This document shows, piece by piece, positions 3 to 58,148 of a stretch of DNA of 64,000 nt (position 1 is its first letter; each line of letters opens with the position of its first letter). Position numbers and translations under genes: made by a program. The notes below the pieces were generated by a model, which was not told the origin of the DNA, searched no databases, and worked only from the letters and a program-made list of their open reading frames with translations. This DNA comes from Amphiscolops sp. MND2022 (Eukaryota): the NCBI GenBank assembly GCA_964187785.1, contig OZ076410.1, positions 75,144,001-75,208,000 on the forward strand. The letters are read 5' to 3'.

Positions 3-941
3 GCCCACAATTCACAACCGATTTCAGAACTTAATGTTTCCCCTTACGAAATAGTTTTCCACACAAGACCCCGAATTCCACTTACATTTGATCTTAATCT
101 CAATCGTAACACATCCAAAACTTGTATCTCACAATATTGTTCACAACTTCCAGAACACTCACACTACGATAAAACTGATTTAAACCCCTTCTTCTACAAA
201 ACACTATCCAAACCTATTCCACAATGGTTTCTTGCTGTCGAAACTGCAATGCTTCAAATTTACTCAACTGTTTACTACTATACTCTCAAAAAACTCAATT
301 CTCACGCCTATATTACCAAAACCTACCATGAAGGTAAACCCCTTCCTATTGGTACTTTTGTTCTCAAACGTCATTTTGCACACGTTCACTTTTCAGACAA
401 ACTTAAACCCCTTCGAATTGGTCCATACAAAATTCTTGACCGATTATCCGATGTTACATATGAACTCCTAGCACAAGATGGTTCTACATTACATGTTCAC
501 CGAAATCATATAATCCCTTATTATCCAAAAGAACCACTACTATACCCACATCTTCGTAATTTTATGCGTTTCTCTGATTCAATTAAATTGGACATTCCAA
601 AACCCATTCAATATGCTAATAGCGACTCATCACCTTTTAATTCCGATGAATCCCTTTCTGACGATACATCAGTTTCGGATAATGACCAACTCTTATCACC
701 AAACAACATTTCTCCACAAACTCCATTAAATACTAATCCATCATCAACAATAAACCTACCCTTTCAATCAATTCCTCAAACCCCTAGTACTAATCACTCC
801 CGTGACAGAACTCGTCACCCATCTCAAAATCAATCTCCATCACCTTCTATTACAAATAATAGAGATACAAAAACTCATTATAGCTTGAGACAACAACCAA
901 AAATGGATTATCGTATTTTTATACCACCATCGAAATTGTAA
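3..941 (+). CDS. pol: Pol C-terminus: end of integrase core, GPY/F-type C-terminal domain and S/P/N-rich tail (5'-partial)
   Basis: Frame 3 is open from base 3: AHNSQPISELNVSPYEIVFHTRPRIP (end of gypsy IN core) ... KLKPLRIGPYKILDRLSDVTYEL...VHRNHIIPY (GPY/F motif). Stop TAA at 939-941. Confidence 0.85.
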   Translation, partial: AHNSQPISELNVSPYEIVFHTRPRIPLTFDLNLNRNTSKTCISQYCSQLPEHSHYDKTDLNPFFYKTLSKPIPQWFLAVETAMLQIYSTVYYYTLKKLNSHAYITKTYHEGKPLPIGTFVLKRHFAHVHFSDKLKPLRIGPYKILDRLSDVTYELLAQDGSTLHVHRNHIIPYYPKEPLLYPHLRNFMRFSDSIKLDIPKPIQYANSDSSPFNSDESLSDDTSVSDNDQLLSPNNISPQTPLNTNPSSTINLPFQSIPQTPSTNHSRDRTRHPSQNQSPSPSITNNRDTKTHYSLRQQPKMDYRIFIPPSKL

Positions 942-1002
942 AACATCCATTCACTTTCCAATCACCACTCCAATCAGTCACATAAAATTTACAAATTTCT
1001 GA

Positions 1003-2265
1003 TCAAACTGGCCCACCAATCTGGATTCTTCATCTGAAACATCTCCCTCTGCTCCTAATATACCTTCTCCATCTGAATCCTCTGTTTCGAACACAACTAC
1101 AAATAGTAATGTAACACCAATAACTCCTTCAAAACGACCAAGATCTCACATTATAACTACCTCTCCAACACCATCTTCTCATACACATTCAACTCACATT
1201 AGTAGACCACCTATTGCTGAAATACCTTATACTCCTCGCTCTCGATCTCAACCGTCATTTGTCCACATACCACATCCTCATACTGTAGCACATCTTGTAA
1301 ATTACAAACAACCAACTGCTATTAAAACAGCCCGTGTTTCACCTAACCTTCCATCTAAATTAGATATTGTACCACTATCTGATATTGAATACACACCTCT
1401 ACCTACATTACACTTACCATCTGAATCTTCAAACCCATCTCAACTTTACCCTCCTTTAAAACCACTTAGACATCCTTCCACTTCTCTTTCCAACTTAATA
1501 GACTCTCCTTCAGAATATTTACCACAAACTGATACTTCAGGTTCTGATATAGTACCACATCACAGATATAATCTCAGACCTCTTCCCAATAGACGCCTGA
1601 GTGCAACAGACTCATCAACTCTTAATTTTTCAGCACTTTCTAGCAACTCAGCATTACGCCTTCTTAGACAACACGCTCAACCTTTATCTTCTGATACAGC
1701 ACACTCTTCTGATTTTGTTCCACAATCTTATCTCACTTCTGGATTAGACACAGCTTCATTACTTTCATCGGACGTACAAACTGCATATTTATCTGGCAAC
1801 CTCTTCTCTGAAGTCTTAGTACCTACACCTGTTGCTCCTCACGTACGAATACCTGAATACTACACATATGATCAATCAAGACCACCTACTCCTAATTTCG
1901 CAGACTACCCTTTACGTGTAGACGGCGTTACTATATATGATCCTCAAAACGATCCCCGTTTCCCTCTCTTAGCCGAACGCTTTATTACCACAAATAACTC
2001 TCTCTCACATAAACGAAAAGAAACTGAATTAAAACGACTCCAAACTCCAAATCTAGAAATAAAATTTGAAGTCAAAGTTAAGTTTCAAGGTCTTAATCCA
2101 CACCCCATATTTCACGTTGCAAAAATTGAACACAAAACTACTCCTGCTCCTTTTGAAGTAATATTCGTCGATTTCAACCGTGATCCTGAATTAAACGACT
2201 TAGCTTATGGCAAAATTGTCTTCTACAACCCCTTCTCTGGTCTCAAATATACAACTTCCTTTTAA
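1003..2265 (+). CDS. Methionine-free 420-codon accessory ORF between pol and env; possible CTG start at 1021
   Basis: Hand translation of frame 1 shows no stop from 1003 to TAA 2263-2265 and no ATG, so it is absent from the ORF track. S/P/T-rich N-terminal part, HRYNLRP motif, globular-looking C-terminal ~125 aa. Overlaps env start by 59 nt. Confidence 0.7.
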   Translation, partial: SNWPTNLDSSSETSPSAPNIPSPSESSVSNTTTNSNVTPITPSKRPRSHIITTSPTPSSHTHSTHISRPPIAEIPYTPRSRSQPSFVHIPHPHTVAHLVNYKQPTAIKTARVSPNLPSKLDIVPLSDIEYTPLPTLHLPSESSNPSQLYPPLKPLRHPSTSLSNLIDSPSEYLPQTDTSGSDIVPHHRYNLRPLPNRRLSATDSSTLNFSALSSNSALRLLRQHAQPLSSDTAHSSDFVPQSYLTSGLDTASLLSSDVQTAYLSGNLFSEVLVPTPVAPHVRIPEYYTYDQSRPPTPNFADYPLRVDGVTIYDPQNDPRFPLLAERFITTNNSLSHKRKETELKRLQTPNLEIKFEVKVKFQGLNPHPIFHVAKIEHKTTPAPFEVIFVDFNRDPELNDLAYGKIVFYNPFSGLKYTTSF

Positions 2266-4933
2266 AACACATGTTCTACTTATTATAACTTATGTATTTC
2301 TCTTTTCTATCAACCCTTATATTACATCTTCCATTCCTATCAAACCAACAGATGATGATAAATATCTCCCATCTGATGACCCAAATATAACAAATCTCAT
2401 GGTTTCCCACTATGACTGTGCAAAACAACATAATCTTCGTCAATTTAATCTTCTCAATGTCAAACAATGTACCGAAGCTCCTTCTAACATACAACATGCA
2501 AACATTCAAGCTCGAGTTTATGTTAGAGCAAAAGCTAAACGTATTCGCGCTTTCAAATGTGAAGCATATGCAAAAAAAGAACGAAAAATCTGCTTCCAAG
2601 GTAATGTTAAATACAGACGTGTTGACAGAACTGTTTGGAATCACAATACAATGCCACTACCTATCACACTTGATCCTCTTGAATGTAAAAATATTATTCG
2701 ACACCTTAATGGAACTGATAATAAAATATTGAACAATCTTAACTATAATAAAACTTTTACGCTACTTGAAGACCACTACTTTCAAGAACAATTAGAACGA
2801 TTTCAAACCCCTTTCACTGTCTATCAATTTAACAAAATGTATACAGGAACATTTACCTATATGCCCGCTGACAAAACTTGGATATATGATCCACTTCGAA
2901 ACCCTTACTATAACTGTCCTGCTCATCACCAATATGAAGTCAACTTAGTAAGTTGGCGTCTCGCTATATCTGAAATTGAACTAACATACGATGATACACA
3001 AAATGTTATGATCATTGATGGTCATACTCTCCCATGTTACTTTGCTGATGGTTTTTGCAAACCTACCACAAAAACTCCTTTCACACTTGTATGGTTTAGT
3101 GACGACTTTTGTCTTATCTTTACTTTACAAGACTTTATTGGACGCATGACCAAAATCGATGATCGATACTGGATAGAAACTGATTCTTTCGTACACTCTG
3201 CTACTCCGAAGAAATCACCTTCCTTTGATGGTATCAAAGGTACTTCTTATCCGCACATTCGTGCTCCTCATACTGAAACTCCACATAACCCAAGTCTTTC
3301 TCGTTTTGAAATCTTTCCTACCGCTAACACCTTTTGTGGAAAACCTGAACCTCTATATTCTACTCAATATTCTGACCTTTTTGTTACTTACACAGAAGGA
3401 TTTAATATGCATACAGGACAACCAAACCCCACTTCTATAATTAATGAATACATTTCTGGTAAAATTGTATTAGACAAATCAAACTCTAATAATAAATACA
3501 TCTTTCCTGCATTGAACGTTTCAAACAATTTTGCTACCATAGATTACGATGCACATATAAACACTAAAATTGACTACACGATTAACCATGTATTTCGTTC
3601 AATGACTGTTCAAGAACTTAATACCCTTCATACAGTATGTGAATTAGAACGCAATCAACTTCTTACAATACTTGCAATGTCGGTACAAAATCCTCAACTT
3701 GCTGGCTTTCTTCTAACAGGCAATCGCAGTAATTTCCTTTACGTCGAAGGATCTACTGCTTGGTTATATGACTGTCCACACTTCCTTTCACCGTTATACA
3801 TTGCTGATCGATGTTTCGATCGCATTCCTATTCATTTCAAGGATACTCTTATGTACGTCGACCCAATTACAAGACAAACATATGACTATGCCACTCCTAT
3901 TACATGTGACAATAACCCGAATAACATTATTGAACTTGATCCTGATTCTGATGACCAAGATTTTTATATTCTTGGACCCGAACCTATAAAACGAAAACCT
4001 CCACTTATGTTTACTCCTTCTCAAATTAAAACTACAATACGCCCTAATACTTTTACCGCTCAAGATGCTGGTATATACTCAAATGCAGAACTAAATCAAT
4101 TTTGGAATCGAATTCTATTTTCAAAACACTCTGATACTACACTTCAACTCTTAGGAAAAGCTCTTAGCTATTCCTTTATTTCTTCTAATACACCTGATTA
4201 TGATGCAAATGAACCACATGGTAACCCATATAATACACTTCGAATTGGACTCCATGATAGATTAATTAACCTAACTCCTCTTTTTACTCCTACATGGTTC
4301 TCTGATGCCTTCATCGCTTTATTTGGATATCCATGTTACATTCTGACACAATGTGGAATTTATTTTTCCACATATCTTTTCATACAAACAATGTTAACTC
4401 TCATTGTTAAATTATACAAAACTATTTCCATAAAGTACAATCTTAAACAAAATATTACACTTTTGAACTCTATTGCCCATGGTTTTCTTAATATTCTTAC
4501 GGCAGACATGCTCCATGACCTAAAAAATGTTCGTTCAAAATCAACTTCTAAAAGTTCACAACAAATGTCAAACATTACTGACAACCCATTAGATGAATCT
4601 TCTTATAATCTAAATGATCCAAATGGTACTACTCCAAATCCAACTGGTATTACTTCACCACCACCTTTTTATACAAAACGTCCAAATCGGATTTCCAAAA
4701 TGACTCGTTTTAAATTCCTTCCAAAACGAAAACAATATAATGTTCATTCCAAATCTAATCCTCAATCATCTTTACCACATTATACTTCAGTTACCACAAA
4801 TCCAAATGATTACACATCACCTGTCAATGACGAGATCGACACTCCTGTCCGCATATATTCAAAAACAAATTACTCCTTCACTCCGCCATCTTTTCAAACT
4901 AATCATTCTGACTTTTTCACTCCTCCGCCATAG
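2207..4933 (+). CDS. env: Env-like type I membrane glycoprotein, 908 aa, resembling chuvirus G / herpes gB-type (class III) fusogens
   Basis: N-terminal hydrophobic signal (HVLLIITYVFLFSI); HYDC...FNLLNVKQC; CELERNQLLTILAMSVQNPQLAGFLL...EGSTAWLYDC...C..RIPI...YVDPITR...ITC cysteine pattern; several NxS/T sequons; C-terminal TM (FIALFGYPCYILTQCGIYFSTYLFIQTMLTLIV); long tail. Family assignment is from motif recall. Confidence 0.75.
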   Translation: MAKLSSTTPSLVSNIQLPFKTHVLLIITYVFLFSINPYITSSIPIKPTDDDKYLPSDDPNITNLMVSHYDCAKQHNLRQFNLLNVKQCTEAPSNIQHANIQARVYVRAKAKRIRAFKCEAYAKKERKICFQGNVKYRRVDRTVWNHNTMPLPITLDPLECKNIIRHLNGTDNKILNNLNYNKTFTLLEDHYFQEQLERFQTPFTVYQFNKMYTGTFTYMPADKTWIYDPLRNPYYNCPAHHQYEVNLVSWRLAISEIELTYDDTQNVMIIDGHTLPCYFADGFCKPTTKTPFTLVWFSDDFCLIFTLQDFIGRMTKIDDRYWIETDSFVHSATPKKSPSFDGIKGTSYPHIRAPHTETPHNPSLSRFEIFPTANTFCGKPEPLYSTQYSDLFVTYTEGFNMHTGQPNPTSIINEYISGKIVLDKSNSNNKYIFPALNVSNNFATIDYDAHINTKIDYTINHVFRSMTVQELNTLHTVCELERNQLLTILAMSVQNPQLAGFLLTGNRSNFLYVEGSTAWLYDCPHFLSPLYIADRCFDRIPIHFKDTLMYVDPITRQTYDYATPITCDNNPNNIIELDPDSDDQDFYILGPEPIKRKPPLMFTPSQIKTTIRPNTFTAQDAGIYSNAELNQFWNRILFSKHSDTTLQLLGKALSYSFISSNTPDYDANEPHGNPYNTLRIGLHDRLINLTPLFTPTWFSDAFIALFGYPCYILTQCGIYFSTYLFIQTMLTLIVKLYKTISIKYNLKQNITLLNSIAHGFLNILTADMLHDLKNVRSKSTSKSSQQMSNITDNPLDESSYNLNDPNGTTPNPTGITSPPPFYTKRPNRISKMTRFKFLPKRKQYNVHSKSNPQSSLPHYTSVTTNPNDYTSPVNDEIDTPVRIYSKTNYSFTPPSFQTNHSDFFTPPP

Positions 4934-5149: not shown

Positions 5150-5289
5150 ATGACTCAAGCACAACTAGATTTCCATAGTATGACTCCTCAAGTCACGCAA
5201 GAACAAATCGATCTCCAAAACCAACTTGAAATGCATACTGCTGATCTTATAACAAAACCCCTTTCAAATGATTCGCCTGTTCTCTTTCT
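5150..5289 (+). CDS. Possible fourth ORF of the element (3'-partial, enters gap)
   Basis: ATG at 5150, MTQAQLDFHSMTPQVTQEQIDLQNQLEMHTADLITKPLSNDSPVLF, open to the Ns, same base composition as the element. Strong splice acceptor TTTTCAG ending at 5134. Confidence 0.35.
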
Positions 5290-5489
5290 NNNNNNNNNNN
5301 NNNNNNNNNNNNNNNNNNNNNNNNNNNNNNNNNNNNNNNNNNNNNNNNNNNNNNNNNNNNNNNNNNNNNNNNNNNNNNNNNNNNNNNNNNNNNNNNNNNN
5401 NNNNNNNNNNNNNNNNNNNNNNNNNNNNNNNNNNNNNNNNNNNNNNNNNNNNNNNNNNNNNNNNNNNNNNNNNNNNNNNNNNNNNNNNN
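5290..5489. other. Assembly gap (200 N)
   Basis: Run of exactly 200 N; sequences on either side need not be contiguous. Confidence 0.99.
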
Positions 5490-7523
5490 CGTCAAAAGCG
5501 TTTGAGTCTACCGTTCTATTACACTTCGCATTCGATTCACCTTTATAATCAATTGAAAACCCTTGCGTCTTCAACGAAAAATTACAACATATCAAAATTT
5601 ATGTCAGTGAAAAAAGACCTCTTGGAGTCTATTGAGTTGGATATCCATTGTTTTGTTAACCATTTTGTTAGTAACAACACGAGAATGCATGACTGTTATA
5701 ATCTAGTCAGATCTTTCAAAAATTCTTCGTCCTATCCCTCAAAAATGACATGGGAGAAAAAGAATTTCTCTGGTAAACCTGATATTGCCAATGCTTTCAA
5801 CGACTTTTTCTTTTGCCAATATCAAGAATGTTCAACTATCAAAAATTTCAACAACTTCGATGAATTAGAATTGAATGATGTTGAAATCACTCTAGATGAA
5901 GTGTACTCAGTTCTAAACTGTTGCACGAATGGAACTGGACCGGATGGTCTTTCTGGGTTTCTACTGCGACAGATTTCCAACGAATTTAGCATTCATTTTC
6001 TTAAATTGGCAGAACACATTCTCAGTACATCAATTTTCCCTGCAAACTGGAAAACAACTTTCATTAGACCAATGCACAAAAAGAAATGTAAAACGGTAAT
6101 CGAAAATTACAGACCTGTAGCATCTTTATCCCGTCTTTCAATTTGTTTTGAACGGCTCCTTTTTAAAAAACTTTATCCCCACTGCTCAAAAAAGATATCC
6201 CATTTACAGCATGGGTTCATGAAAAGCAAATCGATACAATCCCAATTGTTAATTCACTTAGATTACATATACAACAACCTCGACAGAGGAGATGAAGTTT
6301 TCACAGTTTATCTTGATTTCAGCAAAGCGTTTGATCGTGTTGATCATGAGATTTTATTGAAAAAGGTTGCCAGTTTTGGGATTGGTGGCAATATACTCAA
6401 ACTCTTGAAAAGTTATCTCGAAGATCGTGAACAACGAGTTAAAATTGATGACTGTCTCTCAACTGCCCTTCCAATCAAAAGTGGTGTCCCCCAAGGCTCG
6501 GTTATTGGACCTTTATTATTTTTAATCTTCATTAATGATTTGCCTGGTGTTTGTGTCGACTCAATAATGTTACTCTTTGCAGACGATTCGAAAATCTCAA
6601 ATGCTGATCCCATTGAACTCCAGAATGATCTTATAAGGATTTATAACTGGGCGAAAGCAAATAAAATGGAATTCAATAACACGAAAACTGAACTACTATG
6701 GTTTACTCTTCATCGCTATAAAATTTCTGATAGACGTGTATTGGTCTTTGATTCTAAAGATATTGAGTTTTCTACGGTCCCTATTAAAGATTTGGGTATC
6801 AATTTTACGTCTGATTTGAAATGGTCAGCCCACATCGATGTTCGTATTAGAAAAGCTTTTTCACGATTCATGATGTTAAAGCGGTCCTTACCGACTACCT
6901 TACCGGCTAATGTAAAATCACAAGTTTACAAACTTTATATCCTACCAATAATCACCTATGGATCAGTCCTATGGTTTCCCAACAAGACTGATTTATCGAA
7001 ATTAGAAGTCTTTCAAAATAAAGTTATTCGTTGGTTTGGACTTATAGATGATTATAAGGATCGGTTATTAGCCCTAAATTTGCTTCCCTTTTCTCTGCTG
7101 TTTCAGTTGAACGACCTCCTATTCCTACATCAATGTATTGTGAACGATTCTCCGATATGTTCAGGACTGCTCTACAAAGAATCTCTCCGCCATTATGACA
7201 CCCGATTTTCATCACGAAAACTTCTCTTTAAAAAGAAAACAAGACTGAAGTCCACTGACAGCTTTTTCATAAACAGAGTTGTTAATCTAGCTAATTTCGT
7301 ATCATCGAAATTCGAAATTGACTTCTTTGACACGACCTCATTTAAGCCTAAACTGAAAAATATTTTCCGAAACTACCTTAAATATGGCTATGATAAATCG
7401 GATTGTAGAAGGTTTTTGAAGTGCTATTGCTGTTGATTTTTGTTTCTTATATTTTCAATCATAAATAATCAGGCTGTTTAATATCTACAGAAAAGTAGAA
7501 TTTAAGTCTTTTACTACTACTAC
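5490..7523 (+). mobile_element. Non-LTR retrotransposon (CR1/L2/Jockey-group LINE), 3' part with intact RT ORF (5490-7436)
   Basis: GTGPDG, ENYRPVASL, QHGF, YLDFSKAFDRVDH, SGVPQGSVIGPLLFLIFIND, LFADD, KDLGI motifs; ends FLKCYCC*. Short 3' UTR with (TAC)4 tail at 7512-7523. Confidence 0.92.
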
Positions 7524-10700: not shown

Positions 10701-13700
10701 CTCTTCCGCAGTACCCGATAAACCCAAAAGGCCAGGGGACCCTTTGAGATTTTTCAACCATTGTGTCGCAAATCATCAAAAAAATTGAAGGGGGGCCCTT
10801 TCGGAATTTTTTTCGAAAAAAAGTCACAATGCCAAAAAAACTGAAAGGGGGACCCTTCAGTCTCGCCCGGTATTGTATGTTACGCGGAAAGAAGGAAAAA
10901 CCTTTTTGGTTCAGTTCCCTGGGCCAACAGGTACAATTCTGTAGTACCCTAAAATTTTGTAGAACTTTTGGTAGAACTATTTTGGTCACTTCAGGTGTGT
11001 CGAAAAAAACACTGACGAAAAGCATGACTAGAGTCGACTCTTAAGAAAAGCGCCGACTAACAAACAAGCCGGAAACGGCCCAATTCGGCGCCCCGTTCAA
11101 GGCACGAAAGTGTACCCGGGGGACGTGGCTCTAGTATCCGATACTTGTTGAATAAAGATTTTTCGAAAATCCAAAAAAGTCTTATAAAACTGAAAACCGG
11201 ACCCTAAAGCTTTAAATTAGACGCAAATTATGTGAAATTTTGGGAGGAAAATCAATAACGTTATACAGGAAATATTATATCCGAACTTTGAAAACTTTTT
11301 ACTTGGCACTTTTTACAGCTTTGGAAAATACTCCAAGAAACGTTATATCCGGTATAGGTTATATCCGGAATTCGTTATATCCGGTTTGCGTTAAATCCGG
11401 TAGCGGTTGTGTTATGTCGAAGGGGTCTCCATATCCGGTTTGCGTTATATCCGGTATGACTGAAACAAACCGGGACCGGCCCAAGTCGGCGCTATATCCA
11501 AAGCTCAAAAATAGCAAAAGGACTTCCAAGTGTCAATTTACAGTACTCGAAAATCGAAAATGGACCGAGTGGCGCGTCGGGGCCCGCTTGCGCGAGCCCC
11601 TGGCGCGCTAAAAGGGGGACACTTCCGTAATTGTCAACATTTTTGTCGCAGTTGAAGGGGGACCCTTTGGAGAAAAAAATTTTTGAAAAAAAAGTCTCAC
11701 AATGCCGAAAAACCGAAAGGGGGACCCTTTGGGGTTTTTCAACATCCATTCTGTCGCAAAACATCAAAAAATTGTAGGGGAAAATTTTTATATTCGGAAA
11801 AAAATCTCACAGTGCCGAAAAAACTGAAAGGGGGGATTTTCCAACATCCATTCTGTCGCAAAACAGCAAAAAATTGAAGGGGGGACCCTTTGGGGGAAAA
11901 TTTTTCCGAAAAAAAGTCTTGCAGTGCCGAAAAAAATTGAAAGGAGGACCCTTTGGTCTCGCCCGGTATGGTATGTTACGCGGGAAAACAGGAAAAACAT
12001 TTTTGGTTCAGTTCGCTCTAATATTTTGTAGAACTTTTAAGAACTATTTTGGTCAGTTCGTGAGGATTGAAGAAAAAAAGTCACTATAATAGTCGCGTTT
12101 CACTTCATGAAACGCCGACTAAAAACACTGCTATAGTCGTCTGTTTCTACGAAAGCGCCGACTAACATTGGTATCGATCGTTTGTTTTCTGAATTACCCT
12201 ATCGATTATCATTGCTCGTTCTTATTCAAAACACCCGAACTTAAATCCTTCCGTCGCCGAAAATTGCAAATCCTGAGACAATGTCCAAAGCAATGAAATG
12301 TAAAATTCATTCCTTTCTGTTGAAATTTTGTTTTACCAGAAATTTTGGAAACTTGATATAAATGACTCTGAAGGTGCCAATAAAATGCAGAACTCGCGTA
12401 AATTGCGAAAAAATGAAATATATTTTTTATTATTTTTGCGATAGCAGGAATAATATAGAAATTTGAATCATTCAACTTTTTTCATTTCAATTTTCGTCTG
12501 ATTCCGAGTGCTTACTGAAAAATTCAGTTAATTTAATCGGCAGTGAGTATAAGCGTGAGATTTAGATTTCACAAGCTGCCGACGACAATTCGTTTCTCGC
12601 GCGACGAAACGAGCTAGTTGTAATTATGCATCCGTACGCCGAATTCATTCAGATGAAGCGAGCGAACGTTCATAATTATGCTTCCGTACGCCGAGTTATT
12701 AAGATGAAGCGAATGAGTGTTAATTTTATTCGTATGCCGAGAGTTTCACCTGCATTCAAATACGAATGCGAAACTTAGTCTACGCTGAGTAGTTGTATTT
12801 TCTTTAGTCCGAGAAGAATGAAAGGCGGTGTAAACTGGTACAGTGATTAATTATGCGCTGTATAATGATTAAACACGAGTGTTTCCAAATATGCTTCTAT
12901 TATAGAACATGAAAGGCTAAAAGCAGAAATAAATTTGAAACAACACTAAAGCAAAATGAAACACGGGAAAAATTTTTCCTAGAATGACAAAATTCATGGT
13001 TCGGGGATCCATGTCTGTTTCTTTTTCTGTATTTGCTGCTTTTCTAAAAGCTCAAAGTATATTGTCTCGAAATTTTTTTTTGAAATTGAAAGCTTCAATT
13101 CTGCAAATTCATTAAAATGAAGTTGCAATTCGAGTAGTCGATGTGTTGGTTTTAGTTGATATCTGGTCTGTGGGCTGCATCTTCGCTGAGATGTTGACTG
13201 GCGAGACTTTGTTTCCAGCAGAAGACCACGTGGATCTACTCAACAGAATTGTGAAACTTTGTGGCAAGCCCTCGCCGGATGAAATTGCACAGTACATTTC
13301 TGACGATGTTAGTAGCTTCATCTCTCATTTTAGTCATCTTTGTTGAAAAAAACGCAAGGCTCTTACTGTGGCAAGTTTTTTCTCCAACTCACTGAAATTT
13401 CATATTTAAAGCTCGACTGCCTGGTGGTTAGAACGTTGGTCCGGTGAACAGTAAGAAGTGTGTTCAATTTTTTTAAATGAAGCTACTATGGAAATAACGT
13501 TTTCGGATATAACTTATCTACTAGAGTAATGTGATCTGGATATAACGTCAAAATTTCAGATACAGCGCTTTTTCGTTTTGTTCGCGTCATATCCAACGGA
13601 AGATTGGGTTCGAATCTAGTCAACGCCGAAGTTTTCAAATAGAAATTTCTTTTATTCTGATATAATGGATATAACCTGAAATTTTTCGGATGTAACGTAT

Positions 13701-36297: not shown

Positions 36298-37711
36298 TGT
36301 TGGCGCCAAACACTGAAAAATCACTAAACTTGAAAATTTTCACCTTCTTAGTTATTCATAAAATTGGTCATTACTGCTATTATTGAGCCCTAAGAGCTCC
36401 TATCAGTGCTGCTAATAAGATCCATGGGTATGTGTTGAAGACTTGTAATTTTACCTGTTAAAGTACCCATGTGGCCCTTAGACCTATGTAAGCCTTGAAA
36501 CAGTAATTCTCAAGGTCACGTAGAGATCAGCGATCTAGTTTTGTGGCGTCCCCGAATCATTTTGGCTGGACTATCAACCCACCAAGTTTCAGCCAAATCC
36601 CAGACAAAAAATTATTTTTTCTGGCCCTACGGCGCCGCTCCTCAGCTTAAACTCTAACACACAGATAATTGTAACTTTTTGGTGATTTTTGAGATACCTA
36701 TAATCGATGTTATTACTAAAGTGCTTTATACATGCTGTATACCTCCCAACGTGTGTTTTGGAATGTTTCGATTCACAACACGATGTTTGTAGTGTTGCGA
36801 AATAAATGTTATTTCGCCACAAAATTAGCATAATTCTCATATTTTAACAATATTTTCTATATCAAGTGCTGTTTTTTCATCTTCTTCTTACTTTATTGAT
36901 AAATTCAGTTCAGTAGACTGTAAAGGTTATTCATGGTTCATTCACCTGATAGTTTCACTTTGGTTTATATCTGAGCTTGGCAAAATGTAAAGATTTCATG
37001 TGTTTTGTAGTCAAATTTGATGTATTACATCGCCTGATTTGACTTCCGGTGCCTTATAAATGTCAAGATCGACTCCACCCACATATTGCGCGTGCTTCAG
37101 TTTAAGTTTTCCCAAATTTGGTGCCATATACCCCTCTGAAGCATCTTAATAATATTTTTGATAAATACTTAATGATTTATATCTTGAAACTATGTTCAAT
37201 TTTGATGATTTTCCATTCATCTGTTGAAAAGTTCAATAATCATAAATTGAACCTCACAGTCCTCAAACATAGTTCCCCCATGTGACTGGTGGTCATAAAC
37301 GCCCTAATCCCACCTTTTATTCACGCTTTATAACTTTAGAAATGCGAATGATGTTATTGTTTGTTATGCAAACAATGTGTTCTAATAGTTAGTTAGACGA
37401 ATTCTGAATTACGCTAGTGAACAGTTGATTAATAACTTGAGATTTAAATCATTCAATTCTTCACAGTCGAGCGCTGAAGACAGAATCTAGTCATAGCTTG
37501 GACTATTTTCACCAAGATTGTCTTGTTCGAAGAGGATTTGGAGATTGAAATTCTCAAAGTTAGGAATAGCTAGCTAGTGGAGCTATTTCAGACCAATTGG
37601 AATATACAGTCCTTTCAAATTCTAGAATCCTGCTTTACTAGTGGAAAGCAGGACGGACCAAGGACCGGCACAAGCTTGAATCCGTTGTTAAGATTTAAGT
37701 CAGCCGTTACA
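36298..37711 (+). repeat. BEL/Pao 5' LTR (1414 bp)
   Basis: TGTTGGCGCC...GCCGTTACA; matches the 3' LTR except two homopolymer-length differences seen by eye. Confidence 0.95.
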
Positions 37712-37713
37712 TT

Positions 37714-37730
37714 TGGTCCGCCGACCCGGA
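37714..37730 (+). promoter_or_regulatory. Primer-binding site (tRNA-Tyr-like)
   Basis: TGGTCCGCCGACCCGGA 2 nt after the LTR; implies a tRNA with G72/A73 (eukaryotic Tyr identity), similar to the TGGTCCTTCGAGCCGGA PBS of other BEL elements. Confidence 0.7.
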
Positions 37731-37894
37731 CACTGTCTGGAAGTTGAAGACGAGTTACAACTTTGAACCGATATTGTGGTAGTTTGGACGTTTGCGTCTG
37801 CCACATATCTTCATCATCGTGGTAGTTTGGACGTTTGCGTCTGCCACATATCTTCCACACTCATTGGACTTCGTGTTACGAGGACGTCAGGACG

Positions 37895-40800
37895 ATGAGT
37901 ACTCAGACTCAGATCGACTTTGATGTTTCATGGTACACGGATACCAAGCGCTCCAAAGACCTACGAAAATCGACGGATCTTGTCAAATGGAGAAATCATG
38001 CAGAAGCTTTACAAAAAACAAATTTGGATTTGAATGTCGTTGTGAAACAATTCGAAAAGGGGACAAAATGGCTGGAAGAAGGAAAACTCAGTGAATTGGG
38101 AAAATTGTACCATGAGTATCACGATCTGAGGGCTAGATTGACGGATTTGCACCAAGTTGGCAACGAGATGCTGAAGTCCAAAGCCGTAGATGAACAACGA
38201 CGTTTGCAGTCAACCGTGTATGTGCTACTAGACGACGCCTCGAAAAAATGGACCACAACGAACACTGGATTGTCTTGGCTTGGCCCAGTTTATACGCACC
38301 TAAAGCAGAAGTCTTCCTGTGTAATCTATTGTAAACATGAAGACAAATTCAATCAACTCATCGTTGAACTGAAGAAGACAACTTCGCAAATAGAAGACCA
38401 AATTGAAAATGGAGATCGGTCTGCAAAAATACGGACGTCAACACTTGGGTTTATCAACACCATGGAAGAAGCCAAGGATGTTTGTCGATACCAAAAGAGC
38501 TTGTTAAATGAGTCGGGAGCAATACAACGTCAAAACCTATACGAGGGATATGAAGTCAGTTGGCTGTCAGCATCCCAGAAATGGCTGAACTATTTGGAGG
38601 CTATAGAAAAGGGAGGTGCCCTGTCAGACAATGTTCAAGACCCTGTCGAAACTACTGAAACATCACTAATGATGACAAATAATGAGACAAGTGAGGCTGA
38701 AGATGGGAAGCAAGTAGAGAACCAGAATAACGTGGAAGGTAATGTTGCTTCTGCTAGCACTCAGGAAGAGGTGAAAGCGCCTCAAATACCTCCAGATGGA
38801 AATTCGAATGCTACTGGCGTAAGCGTGGTCTCACCTCGGAAACACCCTTTTAGAGGAGAAGTTCCCGCGGATGTTCTTGGGGCCTTAAATGTCACCCAAG
38901 GTTCGACCGCATCGTCACGGTCTTCTAGACGACGTTTGCAGTTGGAAGCTGAAATCGCGGAAGATGAATCTCGAGCCAAGATTGAAAAAAAGGAGCAAGA
39001 GTTGGAACTGCGACGCAAGCAGAGAAAAATGGAAATGGAACTTGAAGCCCAAAAAGAGGCTATGGAGCTTGCAGAGCTGAAACGAGAAGAGAAATTGTCC
39101 CTGAAGCTGAAGAAAATAGAGATTATGGATCAAGCATCTTTAAGGGGTAGCGGGTCTACCATCAGTGGATCGTTTCGCTCTCAGAATGTCAAAACGAGTA
39201 CATGGGTCAATTCTCCAAAGAATAAATTTGGCCCTCAGTCGGAGACAAAAGTCGAGGATGAACCTCAGGCGGCTTGCAACAGTGAAAGGCCATGCTCATC
39301 GAGGCACGCTGATGCTAAACTGGAACAGTCATTAAAGCAAAATGCACCCTCTACAACTACCACTGTCAAGCCAAAGAGGGAGCTGAAGTTCGATTCAACT
39401 GTGTTTGTGCCTAGTAATATAACTGTTGGTGTCGCCAAAGCCGCAGCGCCAAACCATGTGCTTGGATCAACGATGCAGCCAACCCCAACGCCGACCGCTT
39501 TGCCGTCTGTGTCAGTGCCGATGAAGTTGCCAAAAATGGTTCTGGACAAGTTCTCTGGAGACCCATTGGAATGGCCAGAATGGTCCGGTCAGTTCTTGGC
39601 CACTGTTGATCAAGCTGGAGTGGCCGACAGTGTAAAGATGAACTATCTCAAAACATTGGTAACTGGGAAAGCTAAAGCAGCTATTGAAGGCATGGGCTAC
39701 TCTGGACAAATGTACCATGTTGCTTGGCAGACTCTGGCACATGATTTTGGGCGACCTGAGTTGGTTGTAAATGCGCAACTGAGAAAGATTCATGCTTGTC
39801 CATTCATCAAACCGCATGATTCTTTAGAAATTGTGAAGTATTCTCAAGTGGTGTCTGGATGTGTCAATGTGCTCACCCAATTTGGATATGAAAGCGACAT
39901 TTCCTCGGAATCAGTGCTAAACAGCGCCGTCAGAAAGTCGCCAAATGAGCTCAAAAACAAGTGGATGACGTACTTGCAACGGTGCGACAGGAGCTACAAG
40001 AATATGCGAGTCTTCAGTGCATGGCTCAAGAACATTGCGCAAGTACAAGAGAACATACGCTTGCAATTTGGCTCTAGTGCTGACAAAGCGAAGTCAAACT
40101 TCACAAAAGACAAGATGAAGAACACGAGCTTTGCAGCAACAAGTGATTCTGGCTCACCAACGAAGACGCAGTGCCCTCTGAAAGACGGAGAACACAAAAT
40201 ATGGCAGTATGATGCCTTCAAGAAGATGAAGTTGTCCGAAAGACACGATGCCGTCAAGAAATGCAATTTGTGCTTTTCTTGTCTGGGCTCTGGTCACAGG
40301 ATTGGTCAGTGTAAAGCCAATCGAACGTGTGGCAAAGATGGATGTAGCAAGCGGCATAACAGACTCTTGCACGGTGACGACAACAAACCTAAGTCTCAAA
40401 AGGAAAACAGTAGGAGCAATGAGACAACCAATGCCGATGCAGTGATGACAGCAAACGCGTGTACTGGGAGTTTGCAAATTGTTCCAATCACGCTCTCGCA
40501 TGGGAACACATCAATTGAAACGATGGCCATTTGTGACACTGGGTCGACGCTCTCATTTGTAGACAAGGACATCAGAGACCAGTTGGATGTCCAAGGAAAG
40601 GCCCTGACACTGAACATTGCCGGCATTAACGGAACAAAACAGATGGCCAGCGAGAAAGTGAGAATCAAGGTCACAACTCCGAATGTGTCGGAGTTGGTGA
40701 TGTTCCACGTTCACCCCTCAATGAACCTTGGGAACAAGTGTTATGACTATAACAACTTGAAAAGAAAGTACAGCCATTTAGATGTTTTGCCCGATAACAG

Positions 40801-43800
40801 TATGGATCTGAAGAAAGTCAAAGTGGTCGTGGGGCAAGACAATTATCATTTGCTTTTTCCTGTTGAGTATAGGAAAGGCAAACGGAATGAACCCTGGGCT
40901 GTCAAAACAAAACTTGGATGGACGTTAAGTGGCCCACTACCAAAACATGAAGTGGCGCAGGTAGCAGCGACAAGCTATGTTGCATGTGAAGACGAGCTGG
41001 GAAAGCAATTGAAGTCCTGGTTCAGCATGGAGTCATACGCTACACAAGTGAATGTCAGTGGACGTTCAAGAGAAGACAAAAGGGCTCTTGAGCAACTAGA
41101 GAAGACAACAAGACTTGTTGATGGTGGCTACGAAGTTGGGCTACCGTGGGCAGAAGACAATGCGACTATTGAAAACAACTACTTCTTGGCACATTCGCAG
41201 TTCTGTTCATTGGAAAGAAGACTCGAGAAAGACGAGCCCCTCAAGCAACGTTATGAAGAGACTATTAATGTGGACCTGCAGAATGGCTATGTTCGTAAGC
41301 TAGACGAAAAGGAGCTGGATGAAACCAAAGACGAAAGACAGTGGTATGTGCCGCATCATCCAGTTATAAACCCCCACAAACCCGAAAAGGTCAGACGCGT
41401 ATGCAACGCAGCAGCTAAATACAAGGGAGAGTCGCTGAATGACAAGCTCCTGGCAGGTCCTGACTTGCTACAAAGTCTAGTGGGAATCATTTTCAGATTC
41501 AGAGAACATCAAATTGCCTTGACAGCGGACATAGAAGCTATGTTCCTGCAAGTGAAAGTGCCACCACAAGAGTGTCGCGTGCTACGATTCTTATGGAGAA
41601 ACGACCCTCAGGACAAGATTGGCGTCTACGAGTATACAAGGCACGTCTTTGGTGCCAAAAGTAGTCCGACATGTGCAAACTATGCTCTTCTCCAAGCCGG
41701 CATAGACAACAGAGAGAGGCATCCAATAGCTGCAAAGGCCATCAAAAGAAACTTCTACATGGATGACTTTGCAAAATCTGTGGCCACAGTGGAAGAAGCT
41801 GTGCATGTCTACCAGGATGTAAGAATGACTCTTGAAAAAGGGGGGTTTCAATTGCTGAAGTGGATTTGCAACAATGAAGTGGTCACGAGAAGCATTCCCG
41901 AGCAGGATAGGTCGGAGGCAAAAAGCAAAACGTTTGAAGCAGAGCCTCATACTTCATCACTTCTGGGCATGCAATGGAATATGGACAATGACACCCTGGA
42001 AGTGTGTCGTGGTGCTGACAAAGAAGTACCCAACAAAATAACCCAACGAGCAGTGCTTTCGTTTGTAGCATCAGTGTTTGACCCGCTAGGACTCTTTGCA
42101 CCGTTCACGATGAGAATGCGCGTCCTATTAAAGACAATCTGGGCGAAGAGCGGGCAACAGTGGGATGACAACATTGAAAAAGAAGAGGAACAGCAGTTCC
42201 TGGATTGGGCTAAAGAACTAGCGGAGTTGAAAAACATGCCCTTGAGGAGACGATATTTTGACAAATGCTACAAGAAAATAGATTTGCATATTTTCTCAGA
42301 TGCCTCTCTGGAGTCAATGTGTATTGTGGCTTACCTGCGAGCAGAAGACGATGATGGAGTGGAATTGTCCTTCGTCATTGGGAAGTGCAGAATTGCTCCA
42401 ATGAAGCAGCAGACGATCCCGAAGTTGGAGTTGCAAGCAGCACTCTACTCGGTGAGATTGAGGCAGTTGATCACAGAGGACCATGACATCCAGATTCAGA
42501 CAGTGACACACTGGACAGACTCTATGACGGTTCTCCAATGGCTACACTCTGCACATAAAAGACAGCAGGTGTTCGTGGCCAACCGAGTCGGAGAAATATT
42601 GGATCAGTCTACTGTGGACGAATGGAGGCATGTGAAGGGCACAATGAACCCCGCAGACATTGGCACAAGAGGGGTCACAGTGTCACAGTTGCTTGAAAGC
42701 GAATGGCTAAATGGGCCGGCCTGGCTTAGACAGAACCCAGGAAGCTGGCCAGAGCAAGCGAAGCTGTTGGATGAAAACGACATTGTTTTGATGACTAATC
42801 CAACGGAGAGCGTCATAGATTGGTCAAGATTCAGTAAATACAAGAGAATGATTAACGCGGTTGTTTACTGTCTTAGACTTAGATCAAAACAACGTGGCGT
42901 TGTGACAGCATTGGAGAGACAGAAGGTCGAGTTATTGATCTTGCAAATGGCTCAACGCGAAAGTTTTGCTGAATTATTCAGTAAACTTCAAGACAACAGT
43001 GATGAGAGAGTGAAGCATGACTTGGCAAAACTTTCCCCATTTGTTGACAGTGACAACACAATACGGTTGAAGGGTCGATTGAGCAAAGCAACAATTAGTG
43101 ATGATTTGAAACATCCAATTCTACTTTCAGCCAAGCATCCCGCAGTGGTTCTAATGTTGATACAAATGCATGAAGACAACCACCATGAGGGAACAGAGTA
43201 TGTGAGAAGCCTGGTTCAACAACGACTTTGGGTTATTGGACTACGAAATGCTTTGCGCAGCATCAAATCTAAGTGTGTCAAATGCAGAAAGCAGGCAGTG
43301 CGACCGATTCACCCTCACATGGCTGATTTACCAAAGGAACGAGTGGAGCGTAATATATATCCTTTCAAGAACACTGGGGTAGATTACTTTGGCCCATTTG
43401 AAGTTACCGTTCTGCGTAGACCAGTGAAACACTGGTGTTGTTTATTTACATGTTTGGTCACTAGAGCGGTTCACATAGAAGTGGTCAATGGCCTGGACAC
43501 TGATGCATGCATGATGGCGATCACTAGATTCATGGCTAGACGTGGCAAACCCCAAACAATCATCAGTGATAATGGAACTAACTTTGTTGGAGCTGCTCGG
43601 GAATTTAGAGAGTGCCTCAATGAAAGGGATCGTGATGCCCTGTGTAAGCGCCTGGCCAATTCACGAGTTATTTGGAAGTTCAATCCCCCTGGAGCTCCGC
43701 ATTTTGGTGGAATTTGGGAGAGATTAGTACGTAGCTGCAAGAAAGCTATGTTCGCGATTCTTGGAAATCGACGACTGACTTTGCCCGTGTTGACAACTAC

Positions 43801-44302
43801 AATGTGTTTGGTTGAGCAAACATTGAATGCCAGACCATTGACGCCTGTGAGTGACGATCCGGAAGATCTAGAAGCACTGACGCCGAATCACTTTCTGTTG
43901 GGACGACCTGTGCTGGCAGAACCGCTGATGCCAGATTCGGTCAGATACGTGGACTGTCGCAAAATGTACAAAGTGGCTCAGGCATACAATCAGATGATCT
44001 GGAACAGATGGACGAAAGAGTACCTTCCGAAGTGGAATGTGCGATCTAAATGGGCTACTGACGACGAACGTGTGCTGAAAGTTGGAGATCTGGTATGGCT
44101 GATCGACGACTCAGTTCGACGACATGAGAACAAGATGGCTCGAGTGACTGAGGTGTTCCCTGGAGCTGATGGCGTCATTCGATCAGCATTGATCAGGACG
44201 AGCGATGGAGTCCTTCGAAGACCGGCAGTGAAGTTGGCGCCAGTCTTCTATGAGTGTTTTCGAGATGAAAACAGGGCCGGCGATGTTGGCGCCAAACACT
44301 GA
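37895..44302 (+). CDS. BEL/Pao Gag-Pol polyprotein, 2135 aa from first ATG
   Basis: DUF1759-type Gag (KLPKMVLDKFSGDPLEWPEW), three knuckles, ICDTGS protease, FYMDD RT, FSDAS/ELQAA RNase H, HEDNHH..CVKC, GVDYFGP, SDNGTNF, GGIWERLV integrase, W..EYL C-terminal domain. Stop lies inside the 3' LTR. Confidence 0.95.
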   Translation: MSTQTQIDFDVSWYTDTKRSKDLRKSTDLVKWRNHAEALQKTNLDLNVVVKQFEKGTKWLEEGKLSELGKLYHEYHDLRARLTDLHQVGNEMLKSKAVDEQRRLQSTVYVLLDDASKKWTTTNTGLSWLGPVYTHLKQKSSCVIYCKHEDKFNQLIVELKKTTSQIEDQIENGDRSAKIRTSTLGFINTMEEAKDVCRYQKSLLNESGAIQRQNLYEGYEVSWLSASQKWLNYLEAIEKGGALSDNVQDPVETTETSLMMTNNETSEAEDGKQVENQNNVEGNVASASTQEEVKAPQIPPDGNSNATGVSVVSPRKHPFRGEVPADVLGALNVTQGSTASSRSSRRRLQLEAEIAEDESRAKIEKKEQELELRRKQRKMEMELEAQKEAMELAELKREEKLSLKLKKIEIMDQASLRGSGSTISGSFRSQNVKTSTWVNSPKNKFGPQSETKVEDEPQAACNSERPCSSRHADAKLEQSLKQNAPSTTTTVKPKRELKFDSTVFVPSNITVGVAKAAAPNHVLGSTMQPTPTPTALPSVSVPMKLPKMVLDKFSGDPLEWPEWSGQFLATVDQAGVADSVKMNYLKTLVTGKAKAAIEGMGYSGQMYHVAWQTLAHDFGRPELVVNAQLRKIHACPFIKPHDSLEIVKYSQVVSGCVNVLTQFGYESDISSESVLNSAVRKSPNELKNKWMTYLQRCDRSYKNMRVFSAWLKNIAQVQENIRLQFGSSADKAKSNFTKDKMKNTSFAATSDSGSPTKTQCPLKDGEHKIWQYDAFKKMKLSERHDAVKKCNLCFSCLGSGHRIGQCKANRTCGKDGCSKRHNRLLHGDDNKPKSQKENSRSNETTNADAVMTANACTGSLQIVPITLSHGNTSIETMAICDTGSTLSFVDKDIRDQLDVQGKALTLNIAGINGTKQMASEKVRIKVTTPNVSELVMFHVHPSMNLGNKCYDYNNLKRKYSHLDVLPDNSMDLKKVKVVVGQDNYHLLFPVEYRKGKRNEPWAVKTKLGWTLSGPLPKHEVAQVAATSYVACEDELGKQLKSWFSMESYATQVNVSGRSREDKRALEQLEKTTRLVDGGYEVGLPWAEDNATIENNYFLAHSQFCSLERRLEKDEPLKQRYEETINVDLQNGYVRKLDEKELDETKDERQWYVPHHPVINPHKPEKVRRVCNAAAKYKGESLNDKLLAGPDLLQSLVGIIFRFREHQIALTADIEAMFLQVKVPPQECRVLRFLWRNDPQDKIGVYEYTRHVFGAKSSPTCANYALLQAGIDNRERHPIAAKAIKRNFYMDDFAKSVATVEEAVHVYQDVRMTLEKGGFQLLKWICNNEVVTRSIPEQDRSEAKSKTFEAEPHTSSLLGMQWNMDNDTLEVCRGADKEVPNKITQRAVLSFVASVFDPLGLFAPFTMRMRVLLKTIWAKSGQQWDDNIEKEEEQQFLDWAKELAELKNMPLRRRYFDKCYKKIDLHIFSDASLESMCIVAYLRAEDDDGVELSFVIGKCRIAPMKQQTIPKLELQAALYSVRLRQLITEDHDIQIQTVTHWTDSMTVLQWLHSAHKRQQVFVANRVGEILDQSTVDEWRHVKGTMNPADIGTRGVTVSQLLESEWLNGPAWLRQNPGSWPEQAKLLDENDIVLMTNPTESVIDWSRFSKYKRMINAVVYCLRLRSKQRGVVTALERQKVELLILQMAQRESFAELFSKLQDNSDERVKHDLAKLSPFVDSDNTIRLKGRLSKATISDDLKHPILLSAKHPAVVLMLIQMHEDNHHEGTEYVRSLVQQRLWVIGLRNALRSIKSKCVKCRKQAVRPIHPHMADLPKERVERNIYPFKNTGVDYFGPFEVTVLRRPVKHWCCLFTCLVTRAVHIEVVNGLDTDACMMAITRFMARRGKPQTIISDNGTNFVGAAREFRECLNERDRDALCKRLANSRVIWKFNPPGAPHFGGIWERLVRSCKKAMFAILGNRRLTLPVLTTTMCLVEQTLNARPLTPVSDDPEDLEALTPNHFLLGRPVLAEPLMPDSVRYVDCRKMYKVAQAYNQMIWNRWTKEYLPKWNVRSKWATDDERVLKVGDLVWLIDDSVRRHENKMARVTEVFPGADGVIRSALIRTSDGVLRRPAVKLAPVFYECFRDENRAGDVGAKH
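44267..44283 (+). promoter_or_regulatory. Polypurine-tract equivalent
   Basis: GAAAACAGGGCCGGCGA directly before the 3' LTR. Confidence 0.6.
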
Positions 44303-45699
44303 AAAATCACTAAACTTGAAAATTTTTCACCTTCTTAGTTATTCATAAAATTGGTCATTACTGCTATTATTGAGCCCTAAGAGCTCCTATCAGTGCTGCT
44401 AATAAGATCCATGGGTATGTGTTGAAGACTTGTAATTTTACCTGTTAAAGTACCCATGTGGCCCTTAGACCTATGTAAGCCTTGAAACAGTAATTCTCAA
44501 GGTCACGTAGAGATCAGCGATCTAGTTTTGTGGCGTCCCCGAATCATTTTGGCTGGACTATCAACCCACCAAGTTTCAGCCAAATCCCAGACAAAAAATT
44601 ATTTTTTCTGGCCCTACGGCGCCGCTCCTCAGCTTAAACTCTAACACACAGATAATTGTAACTTTTTGGTGATTTTTGAGATACCTATAATCGATGTTAT
44701 TACTAAAGTGCTTTATACATGCTGTATACCTCCCAACGTGTGTTTTGGAATGTTTCGATTCACAACACGATGTTTGTAGTGTTGCGAAATAAATGTTATT
44801 TCGCCACAAAATTAGCATAATTCTCATATTTTAACAATATTTTCTATATCAAGTGCTGTTTTTTCATCTTCTTCTTACTTTATTGATAAATTCAGTTCAG
44901 TAGACTGTAAAGGTTATTCATGGTTCATTCACCTGATAGTTTCACTTTGGTTTATATCTGAGCTTGGCAAAAATGTAAAGATTTCATGTGTTTTGTAGTC
45001 AAATTTGATGTATTACATCGCCTGATTTGACTTCCGGTGCCTTATAAATGTCAAGATCGACTCCACCCACATATTGCGCGTGCTTCAGTTTAAGTTTTCC
45101 CAAATTTGGTGCCATATACCCCTCTGAAGCATCTTAATAATATTTTTGATAAATACTTAATGATTTATATCTTGAAACTATGTTCAATTTTGATGATTTT
45201 CCATTCATCTGTTGAAAAGTTCAATAATCATAAATTGAACCTCACAGTCCTCAAACATAGTTCCCCCATGTGACTGGTGGTCATAAACGCCCTAATCCCA
45301 CCTTTTATTCACGCTTTATAACTTTAGAAATGCGAATGATGTTATTGTTTGTTATGCAAACAATGTGTTCTAATAGTTAGTTAGACGAATTCTGAATTAC
45401 GCTAGTGAACAGTTGATTAATAACTTGAGATTTAAATCATTCAATTCTTCACAGTCGAGCGCTGAAGACAGAATCTAGTCATAGCTTGGACTATTTTCAC
45501 CAAGATTGTCTTGTTCGAAGAGGATTTGGAGATTGAAATTCTCAAAGTTAGGAATAGCTAGCTAGTGGAGCTATTTCAGACCAATTGGAATATACAGTCC
45601 TTTCAAATTCTAGAATCCTGCTTTACTAGTGGAAAGCAGGACGGACCAAGGACCGGCACAAGCTTGAATCCGTTGTTAAGATTTAAGTCAGCCGTTACA
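44284..45699 (+). repeat. BEL/Pao 3' LTR (1416 bp)
   Basis: Near-identical direct repeat of 36298-37711. Confidence 0.95.
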
Positions 45700-57113: not shown

Positions 57114-58148
57114 CTGAGTCCCAAAAATTGGTACCTCTTTCCCTCTAATTAACAATAAGTGGACCATTGGTACGAATACACACCAGTTAGTTTCTGTAAA
57201 CTTCTAAACGATCCAGCTGACCCTATGGTACAGAAAACTCTTGAATAAGATTTTCAGACGATATTACATAGCATCGAATTCCACCATTTTCACAGAATAT
57301 TGACATGCTGTCTCCAAAATCAAGAAAACGGGACCAAAGAATCAAAAAATTGAGCACAGATTTTCCGTTTTTCCAGTTTCCGTTTATGGCCACTTTATCC
57401 CACTGGTATCAAGATTAGGTCAAAGTGGCCCTAGCATGTTTTGAAACATGCTGAAATGCAGTCAGAAACACGAGGCGTGCAGAACTTCGGCGCGAAGTCC
57501 GGAGCCAGCGTGGCGAAGCCCCCAGACCAGCAGTTCGAAAATCAAATTGAAAGCACTGATTGTCTTCTTTCGAACGCGCTATAAATCGTTTGTCGGACTT
57601 GAATAGTTTAGGAGATATTGTGGTTTAAAGTTTAAACGCCATATTTTTAGATGGATCCGGAAATTGCCTGGTACAGTTAGGGTTAAGTCTCCGATTTTTG
57701 ATAGGAACCACAGAGAAAATTAGGCCATTTTCCACCCGAGGAAAAACAAAAGGCGCGTTGACACAATGATATTTCCATTTCTTGAGCGAAACGCTTGGAA
57801 AACACGGAAGATGACATGGTATGGGGCTCAAAACGATCGACTAGAGTAAACGAATGTCAGTGAAGCTACACCCACAATTGAGCTTCTGATATATTTTACA
57901 TGTCAAATTGGTTCCAACTAGTTTTCCGCTTTACTCAAATGTTTTATCTGATTGAAAACTTCCATTCGACACTGAAAATATAAAATATGGGCTCAAAAGA
58001 TCACGTAGCCAATCTTCGAAAAAAAATTGATGAATTGCTCATAAATTGATTTTTTTTTCAAGAAAAGACATTCTCCGTTTTTTATTATTCATCTTTACAT
58101 TCTTCTTTTTGACTCCAAAATGCTATTAGAAACACCCCAGGTAGATGG

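Follow-up and report, generated by a model that had tools for sequence, protein, structure and literature searches.

How a protein could be made from a long reading frame without an ATG, and whether such a frame is a gene at all, is the question raised by a locus in Amphiscolops sp. MND2022. The analysed stretch of 64,000 nt (contig OZ076410.1, positions 75,144,001 to 75,208,000; hereafter the window) contains, between the pol and env genes of a retrovirus-like element, a frame 1 that is open from 1003 to 2265, with 420 codons, no stop and no ATG. An earlier note, made from the sequence alone, had drawn attention to this frame, and all of its coordinates hold: the pol stop ends at 941, the env ATG lies at 2207, and the frame overlaps env by 59 nt. 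The CTG at 1021 does have an A at −3 together with a G at +4, and the HRYNLRP word in the frame and the HYSLR word in the pol tail are both present, as noted. Chance opening is indeed unlikely, since base shuffling of the stretch never gave a stop-free sequence in 2000 trials (mean 19.8 stops, minimum 7); the other two frames contain 21 and 39 stops. The conserved coding part runs from the CTG to the stop (1021–2265, 414 codons), and codons 1003–1020 are not conserved. This part is called ORF-X below, and its position among the neighbouring features is given in Table 1.

Table 1. Features of the ORF-X locus (window positions unless a locus is named) and the observations attached to them.
Feature	Position	Strand	Observation
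3' end of gag-pol, integrase C-terminal region and disordered tail with YSLR at 879–890	3..941	+	Pfam SH3_Tf2-1 and Integrase_p58_C just below cut-off
Non-coding spacer	942..1020	+	indels of every phase across copies
AATCTGGAT, putative CUG start in strong context	1018..1026	+	column conservation, families A/B/C
ORF-X, 414 codons, no Met	1021..2265	+	dN/dS median 0.18 vs 12 other subfamily representatives
PSAP, late-domain-like motif	1045..1056	+	74/77 family A, 9/10 family C, 0/19 family B
Out-of-frame ATG-TAA start-stop element, 88 nt after CTG	1109..1114	+	AATGTAAC in 107/117 copies
LYPPL, YPXnL late-domain-like motif	1444..1458	+	LYPxL conserved in families A, B, C
YNLR, foamy-virus Gag nucleosome-anchor look-alike	1567..1578	+	families A, B, C
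Conserved C-terminal domain, predicted two helices then five-strand sheet	1810..2262	+	dN/dS 0.08; AlphaFold2
env, class III fusogen type	2207..4933	+	Pfam PF24664 Monjiviricetes_fusion E 8.8e-23; 59 nt shared with ORF-X
ORF4 start, ATG-initiated accessory ORF, cut by assembly gap 5290–5489	5150..5289	+	
ORF4 and ORF5 after env	L042:236–1651, L042:1972–2550		~475, ~190 codons

The host of ORF-X is a large env-carrying Ty3/gypsy element, an errantivirus in the broad sense, with an env of the gB type. Its genes are arranged in the order gag-pol, ORF-X, env, ORF4 (~475 codons) and ORF5 (~190 codons), and three sister copies measured 17.6–18.6 kb. Terminal repeats of 396–418 nt, 99–100% identical, were found in 4/4 sister copies, TG...CA ends with a 4-bp TSD in 3/3 copies, and a TGG-starting PBS-like word in the one copy viewed. 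The gag-pol frame of the upstream locus (L031) matched Retrotrans_gag, RVT_1 and RT_RNaseH and then, weakly, Integrase_H2C2 (E 0.003). A 202-codon +1 frame within gag of this locus (L031:5282–5890) has a dN/dS of 1.3–2.3 and is therefore probably a shadow frame. In the window copy, gag-pol is interrupted by a premature stop within the integrase region, and the assembly gap at 5290–5489 has removed the 3' part of the element. We take the PF24664 family, which env matches, to be equivalent to a gB-type class III fusogen env; its predicted cytoplasmic tail contains a PPFY, a PPxY late-domain-like word, at 4661–4672. ORF4, with ~475 codons in three sister copies, evolves at a dN/dS of 0.08–0.10, and ORF5 (~190 codons) at 0.06 in the sole measurable pair. 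Neither had a Pfam match above cut-off, and ORF4 gave no Atlas lead. Elsewhere in the window lie a second LTR element (36298–45269, near-identical repeats ~8 kb apart, with a 2158-codon ORF at 37826–44302) and an inverted and direct repeat family resembling a non-autonomous DNA transposon (10765–12078, 52851–54646, 58136–58544 and 60659–60950). The long frame after the gap (5490–7436) resembles a non-LTR reverse transcriptase in its motifs.

The element family is young and present in high copy: the best 150 of 5689 candidates are 99–100% identical, and 143 of these best 150 matches have a frame of at least 401 codons. Because open frames alone prove nothing at such identity, diverged relatives were sought, and subfamilies were found at 65–70% DNA identity. 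From 146 loci and the window, 134 stretches were cut, of which 117 were distinct and 77 were intact from the start column; these formed 13 clusters (family A). The copies were top search matches, partly selected for open frames, so that counts of intactness are biased upward. Between the window and the 12 other representatives, ORF-X had dN and dS values of 0.23 and 1.3, and dN/dS ranged from 0.13 to 0.21 (95% CI 0.11–0.23 for the window versus L073). By region, dN/dS fell from 0.35 for the N-terminal arm to 0.13 for the middle part and 0.08 for the C-terminal domain, and mismatches at the three codon positions amounted to 0.28/0.12/0.53. The expectation that the frame would stay open in other copies with dN/dS below 1 is thus borne out (median 0.18), and with this purifying selection the proposal of an unannotated accessory protein between pol and env gains its support. 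ORF-X is a conserved protein-coding gene. Methionine is absent from it in 75 of the 77 intact family A copies.

A profile search of 1.84 billion representatives returned 191 matches at E ≤ 0.001. Ten of them were looked up and were unnamed ENA proteins, two of which led to families B and C. Both families are young and reside in the same genome, and their proteins are 36–44% identical to the ORF-X of the window. Here too ORF-X lies between homologous pol and env genes, and the order pol–X–env is found in all three families. Three pairs each gave dN/dS values of 0.09–0.10 for family B and 0.24–0.28 for family C. The copies carried forward, 19 of family B and 10 of family C, were intact and had been chosen for an in-frame CTG, so that the CTG in 19/19 and 10/10 are not independent counts. 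A further protein, P0201, carries LYPxL, and its best match in the genome of the window is 52% identical; the family therefore probably also occurs elsewhere. P0215 stands for a fourth family. A scan of JGI metagenomes by pattern gave 166 matches, none of which was confirmed. Homologues of ORF4 follow env in family C as well, and a YxLR/YxFR word closes Pol in all three families (window 879–890; L049, L073, L152, L193 and L183), where it is possibly a nucleosome tether of the integrase. Five tandem ORF-X-like units, spaced ~1150 nt apart, were seen at G000:C119:13625–19371.

Translation of ORF-X very probably starts at the CUG at 1021, as judged from the pattern of conservation, which sets in abruptly at this codon. 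Among 117 family A copies the start column holds CTG in 111; position −3 is A in 116, position +4 is G in 115, and codon 2 is GAT in 112. The other Leu codons of ORF-X are CTG in only 11/548 cases (~2%), and CTG is not favoured in any of the 20 remaining all-Leu columns. Of the positions before the CTG, −1 and −2 are variable and −3 is fixed, and codon 2 is GAT in 112/117, yet Asp in the body of the gene is encoded by 100 GAT and 90 GAC. The start AnnCTGGAT is common to families A, B and C, and each locus has roughly one such word (122 among 134 stretches, and 30 among 29 loci). Among 56 loci from the search for families B and C (L200 repeats L152), AnnCTGG was in frame in 34; the remaining 22 were broken earlier or gave no match, and none of them had an ATG at the start site. 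The best predicted context for a non-AUG start is (C/A)(A/G)(C/A)(A/C/G)CUGGAU (PMC9082881; see also PMC524250), and the match of AnnCTGGAT to the predicted context ending in CUGGAU supports a CUG start. A conserved near-cognate codon in strong context thus marks the 5' limit of the coding region. No strong hairpin was predicted after the CUG (−1 to −6 kcal/mol).

Upstream of the CTG, the spacer contains indels of all phases and in-frame stops, with 5/77 intact copies having a stop three codons before the CTG. Non-AUG initiation, splicing and frameshifting from pol had all been suggested as routes to the protein. The non-AUG start at CTG-1021 is now strongly favoured; the spacer, whose length varies in all three phases, contradicts both frameshifting or readthrough from pol and in-frame splicing to the start. 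An additional putative near-cognate start, ATT-GA(T/C), again preceded by A at −3, lies 32–39 codons upstream in 12/13 copies of family C; in L183 it reads ATT-GAT and lies in frame 117 nt before the CTG. The extension from ATT to CTG has a third-position bias (0.11/0.11/0.24).

The scarcity of ATG in ORF-X suggests that env is probably made from the same RNA by leaky scanning. ORF-X contains 0.28 ATG per kb in family B, 2.1 in family C and 2.5 in family A, compared with 6–16 per kb for the remaining triplets that combine these three bases in ORF-X and 19–20 ATG per kb in env of families B and C. In family B, 12/19 copies lack an ATG in any frame over 1.34 kb and 7/19 have one; the env ATG follows the X stop by 1–3 nt and has A at −3 in the 17/19 copies where it was located. 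The paucity of AUG is clear in family B and weaker in families A and C, with 1–5 per copy. In family A, 1–4 out-of-frame ATGs with short frames precede env within ORF-X, one of them an invariant start-stop element. Against synonymous shuffles, the deficit of out-of-frame ATGs reached P < 0.05 in 7/13 representatives and was not significant in the window copy (3 vs 5.1, P 0.13). ORF-X is also devoid of Trp and nearly devoid of Cys, on a strand poor in G; base composition therefore accounts for part of the absence of Met. The env ATG column holds ATG in 112/117 family A copies, and several family A representatives, the window among them, have a pyrimidine at −3 of env.

The start-stop element ATG-TAA lies at an offset of exactly 88 from the CTG in 102/117 family A copies, amid otherwise variable sequence, although some other Asn and Val codons are fixed as firmly. 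It is absent at the corresponding place in families B and C. Since reinitiation after very short ORFs is established, we infer that the element at +88 may tune env output. Non-AUG starts leak, and viruses thereby reach downstream genes over AUG-free stretches (PMC3542737).

Either splicing or an internal promoter could give rise to an RNA shared by ORF-X and env, and the spacer at 942–1020 is its probable 5' leader. Within the spacer, TCAGTC at 974–979 is compatible with both an initiator element and a splice acceptor, and the patterns TCA[GT]T[CT] and YAGTY were each present in the spacers of 13/13 representatives. The spacer of family B (L148, L193 and L198) contains, ~250–300 nt before the CTG, a conserved GTCTAGAC palindrome and a CTGAAC(A/G)GTTGCT word; both are candidate internal-promoter elements.

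The N-terminal ~270 residues of the protein are disordered and rich in S, P and T. Motifs common to the families are PSAP (A and C only), HIPxP, PT(A/S)xK, LYPxL, YNLR, LRx(H/Q)AQ and TSG. LYPxL was found in 69/77 copies of family A, 17/19 of family B and 5/10 of family C (IYPxL in L183), and arose in 0.6–1.3% of composition shuffles. YNLR was present in 72/77, 19/19 and 10/10 copies, respectively (101/106 in total), compared with ~0.2% of shuffles. PSAP arises in 3–6% of shuffles and a loose YPx(1–3)L in 12–27%. Late-domain-like words are thus kept as LYPxL in three families and as PSAP in two, and a Tyr-x-Leu-Arg anchor, as in acidic-patch tethers, lies within the disordered region. No PPxY was found in ORF-X, no P(T/S)AP in the scanned parts of Gag-Pol, and no membrane-binding signal in ORF-X, where the highest hydropathy window reached 0.82.

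For the C-terminal domain (~120 aa), AlphaFold2 gave a pLDDT of 80 and a pTM of 0.62 with 41 diverse sequences. Pfam had no match for ORF-X or this domain at E ≤ 1, and the ESM Atlas gave matches of only 0.76 and no lead for ORF-X. Foldseek against PDB and BFVD found no match at E ≤ 0.001 and VIA gave a best Z of 2.9, which is not proof of a new fold. The C-terminal domain is a new protein family without a matched fold. A sequence search of PDB returned exonuclease VII as best match (E 0.017), which is not credible, and an origin of ORF-X from a duplicated pol tail found no significant BLASTP match (best E 2.7). The protein had been described beforehand as matrix-like or regulatory; the late-domain-like and nucleosome-anchor-like motifs point in this direction, and the C-terminal domain had no fold match to any matrix protein. 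A role like that of gammaretroviral MA-p12 or foamy virus Gag, split off as a gene of its own, is suggested by these motifs but somewhat less likely than not.

Taken as a whole, the reading to which we assign a probability of about 0.62 is that of a conserved ORF-X with a likely CUG start, a subgenomic RNA shared with env, and a product predicted to act as an ESCRT/nucleosome adaptor. ORF-X would start at CUG 1021 on a subgenomic RNA, and ribosomes that miss the weak CUG would continue scanning as far as the AUG of env, both proteins thus coming from one RNA; in family A, ribosomes would reinitiate after the ATG-TAA at +88 on the way to env. As a free-standing adaptor, the protein would, on this prediction, both bring in ESCRT budding factors and attach to nucleosomes. 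More tentatively, these elements may be giant complex retroviruses of invertebrate type, with a fourth core gene of new fold encoding a CUG-started budding/chromatin adaptor, made at a fixed ratio with Env from one bicistronic RNA that is start-stop-tuned in one branch.

The main rival, which we consider unlikely, also starts ORF-X at the CUG and makes it a nuclear chromatin-binding regulator, either a transactivator or a factor against silencing, rather than a protein of particles or of budding, with an env RNA that may be separate. Complex retroviruses carry such transactivator or regulator genes, YNLR is the best-conserved short motif of ORF-X, the YxLR/YxFR word recurs at the end of Pol in all three families, and a basic KRPRS follows the N-terminus. 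Against a nuclear regulator, all three families retain LYPxL and two retain PSAP, and both the ORF-wide scarcity of ATG and the 1–3 nt X–env junction of family B tie X to env expression. We prefer a p12- or matrix-like adaptor expressed together with Env. Less probable by a good margin is that splicing joins ORF-X, as a second exon, to an upstream AUG, for example in gag or near the LTR, and that the CTG is an ordinary Leu codon. Genes on the env side are usually expressed through splicing (PMC4402516) and YAG words do occur in the spacer; however, the AG-like word lies 43–90 nt before the CTG, in all three phases, and the window has an in-frame TGA between the two. The first AG within the ORF falls at codon 29 in the window subfamily, at 10–11 in the rest of family A, at 17–46 in family B and at 7–18 in family C, and these differences argue against a common acceptor. 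Codons 4–12 vary mostly synonymously, and such an exon would leave the fixed A at −3, CTG and GAT unexplained.

We give very little weight to ORF-X as a C-terminal extension of Pol made by frameshift or readthrough. Three 458-codon copies do have a frame that is open back into pol, but this applies to only 6/76 intact copies, the gap from pol stop to CTG occurs in all phases (38/34/4), and families B and C have an even longer spacer. Least credible of all is a spacer without coding function whose frame has stayed open through base composition and because the family is young. The strand is C-rich as well as G-poor, and open frames say little among the best 150 copies at their level of identity; against this, dN/dS refutes it (dS ~1.3 vs dN 0.23 between subfamilies), families at 36–44% protein identity keep the frame, the motifs and the C-terminus, ORF-X holds a domain predicted to be foldable, and the probable shadow frame in gag gives a dN/dS of 1.3–2.3.

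Extra ORFs in LTR elements are already known, as are CUG starts and leaky scanning in murine leukemia virus (MLV) and pararetroviruses. Our literature searches, mainly of open-access papers, found no LTR element described as having a non-AUG gene between its pol and env; the combination of features and the ORF-X protein family were not found there. Transmission mechanisms are elusive for most elements (PMC13524379), and the assembly and budding of gB-type invertebrate retroviruses are largely obscure; through its motifs, ORF-X offers a testable candidate. A CUG start with leaky scanning is a suggested route to env expression, none having been reported for LTR elements in the literature searched. 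'Non-coding' pol–env spacers in surveys may hide non-AUG genes, and, if our reading is true, genes of the ORF-X type would be missed wherever genes are called from AUG.

The closest known elements are the HSV/gB-type 'ancient errantiviruses', LTR Ty3/gypsy elements surveyed by Chary and Hayashi (PMC13524379). They share with the present element gag-pol, a class III fusogen env, multiple copies and youth, whereas the element described here is ~18 kb long, with ORF-X between pol and env and two ORFs after env. The prefilter of that survey admitted at most 1000 nt between POL and ENV, compared with a gap of 1265 nt here, and no gene like ORF-X was found mentioned in the consulted parts of its text or under the terms searched in seven supplements. 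Extra ORFs of LTR elements, some between pol and env, have been recorded as captured ORFs (PMC6431247). Oikopleura Tor3b/4b elements likewise have a pol–env space, and their env RNA comes from an internal promoter (PMC4402516); such a promoter is a candidate source of an X–env RNA. The consulted parts of both papers describe no non-AUG gene or shared X–env message.

The proposed expression resembles ORF I–II–III of rice tungro bacilliform virus, where a non-AUG first ORF and a long AUG-free stretch allow ribosomes to get to a downstream gene; the stretch is 895 nt in that virus (PMC3542737) and 1.34 kb in family B. The rice virus uses the pregenomic RNA of a plant pararetrovirus, AUU and shunting, while the present case concerns an animal LTR element, CUG and a downstream env. 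Prototype foamy virus (PFV) Gag has a chromatin-binding site, GGYNLRPR (PFV peptide GGYNLRPRTYQPQRYG), whose Tyr and Arg contact the acidic patch of H2A–H2B (PMC12125541). The YNLRP of ORF-X matches its Tyr-Asn-Leu-Arg-Pro word, a likeness of 4–5 residues and of motif alone, not a demonstrated homology. MLV glyco-Gag starts at a CUG (PMC3542737), the MA/p12 region of MLV Gag carries, as late domains, PSAP, LYPAL as well as PPPY, with P(T/S)AP and YPXnL being ESCRT late domains (PMC8402826), and in p12 a late domain goes together with a tether to chromatin (PMC6021111). ORF-X is like MLV in its putative CUG initiation and in bringing motifs for late domains and nucleosome tethering together in one disordered region. 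In MLV, however, the CUG extends Gag and the motifs lie within Gag, whereas here they belong to a separate gene with an unrelated domain of its own.
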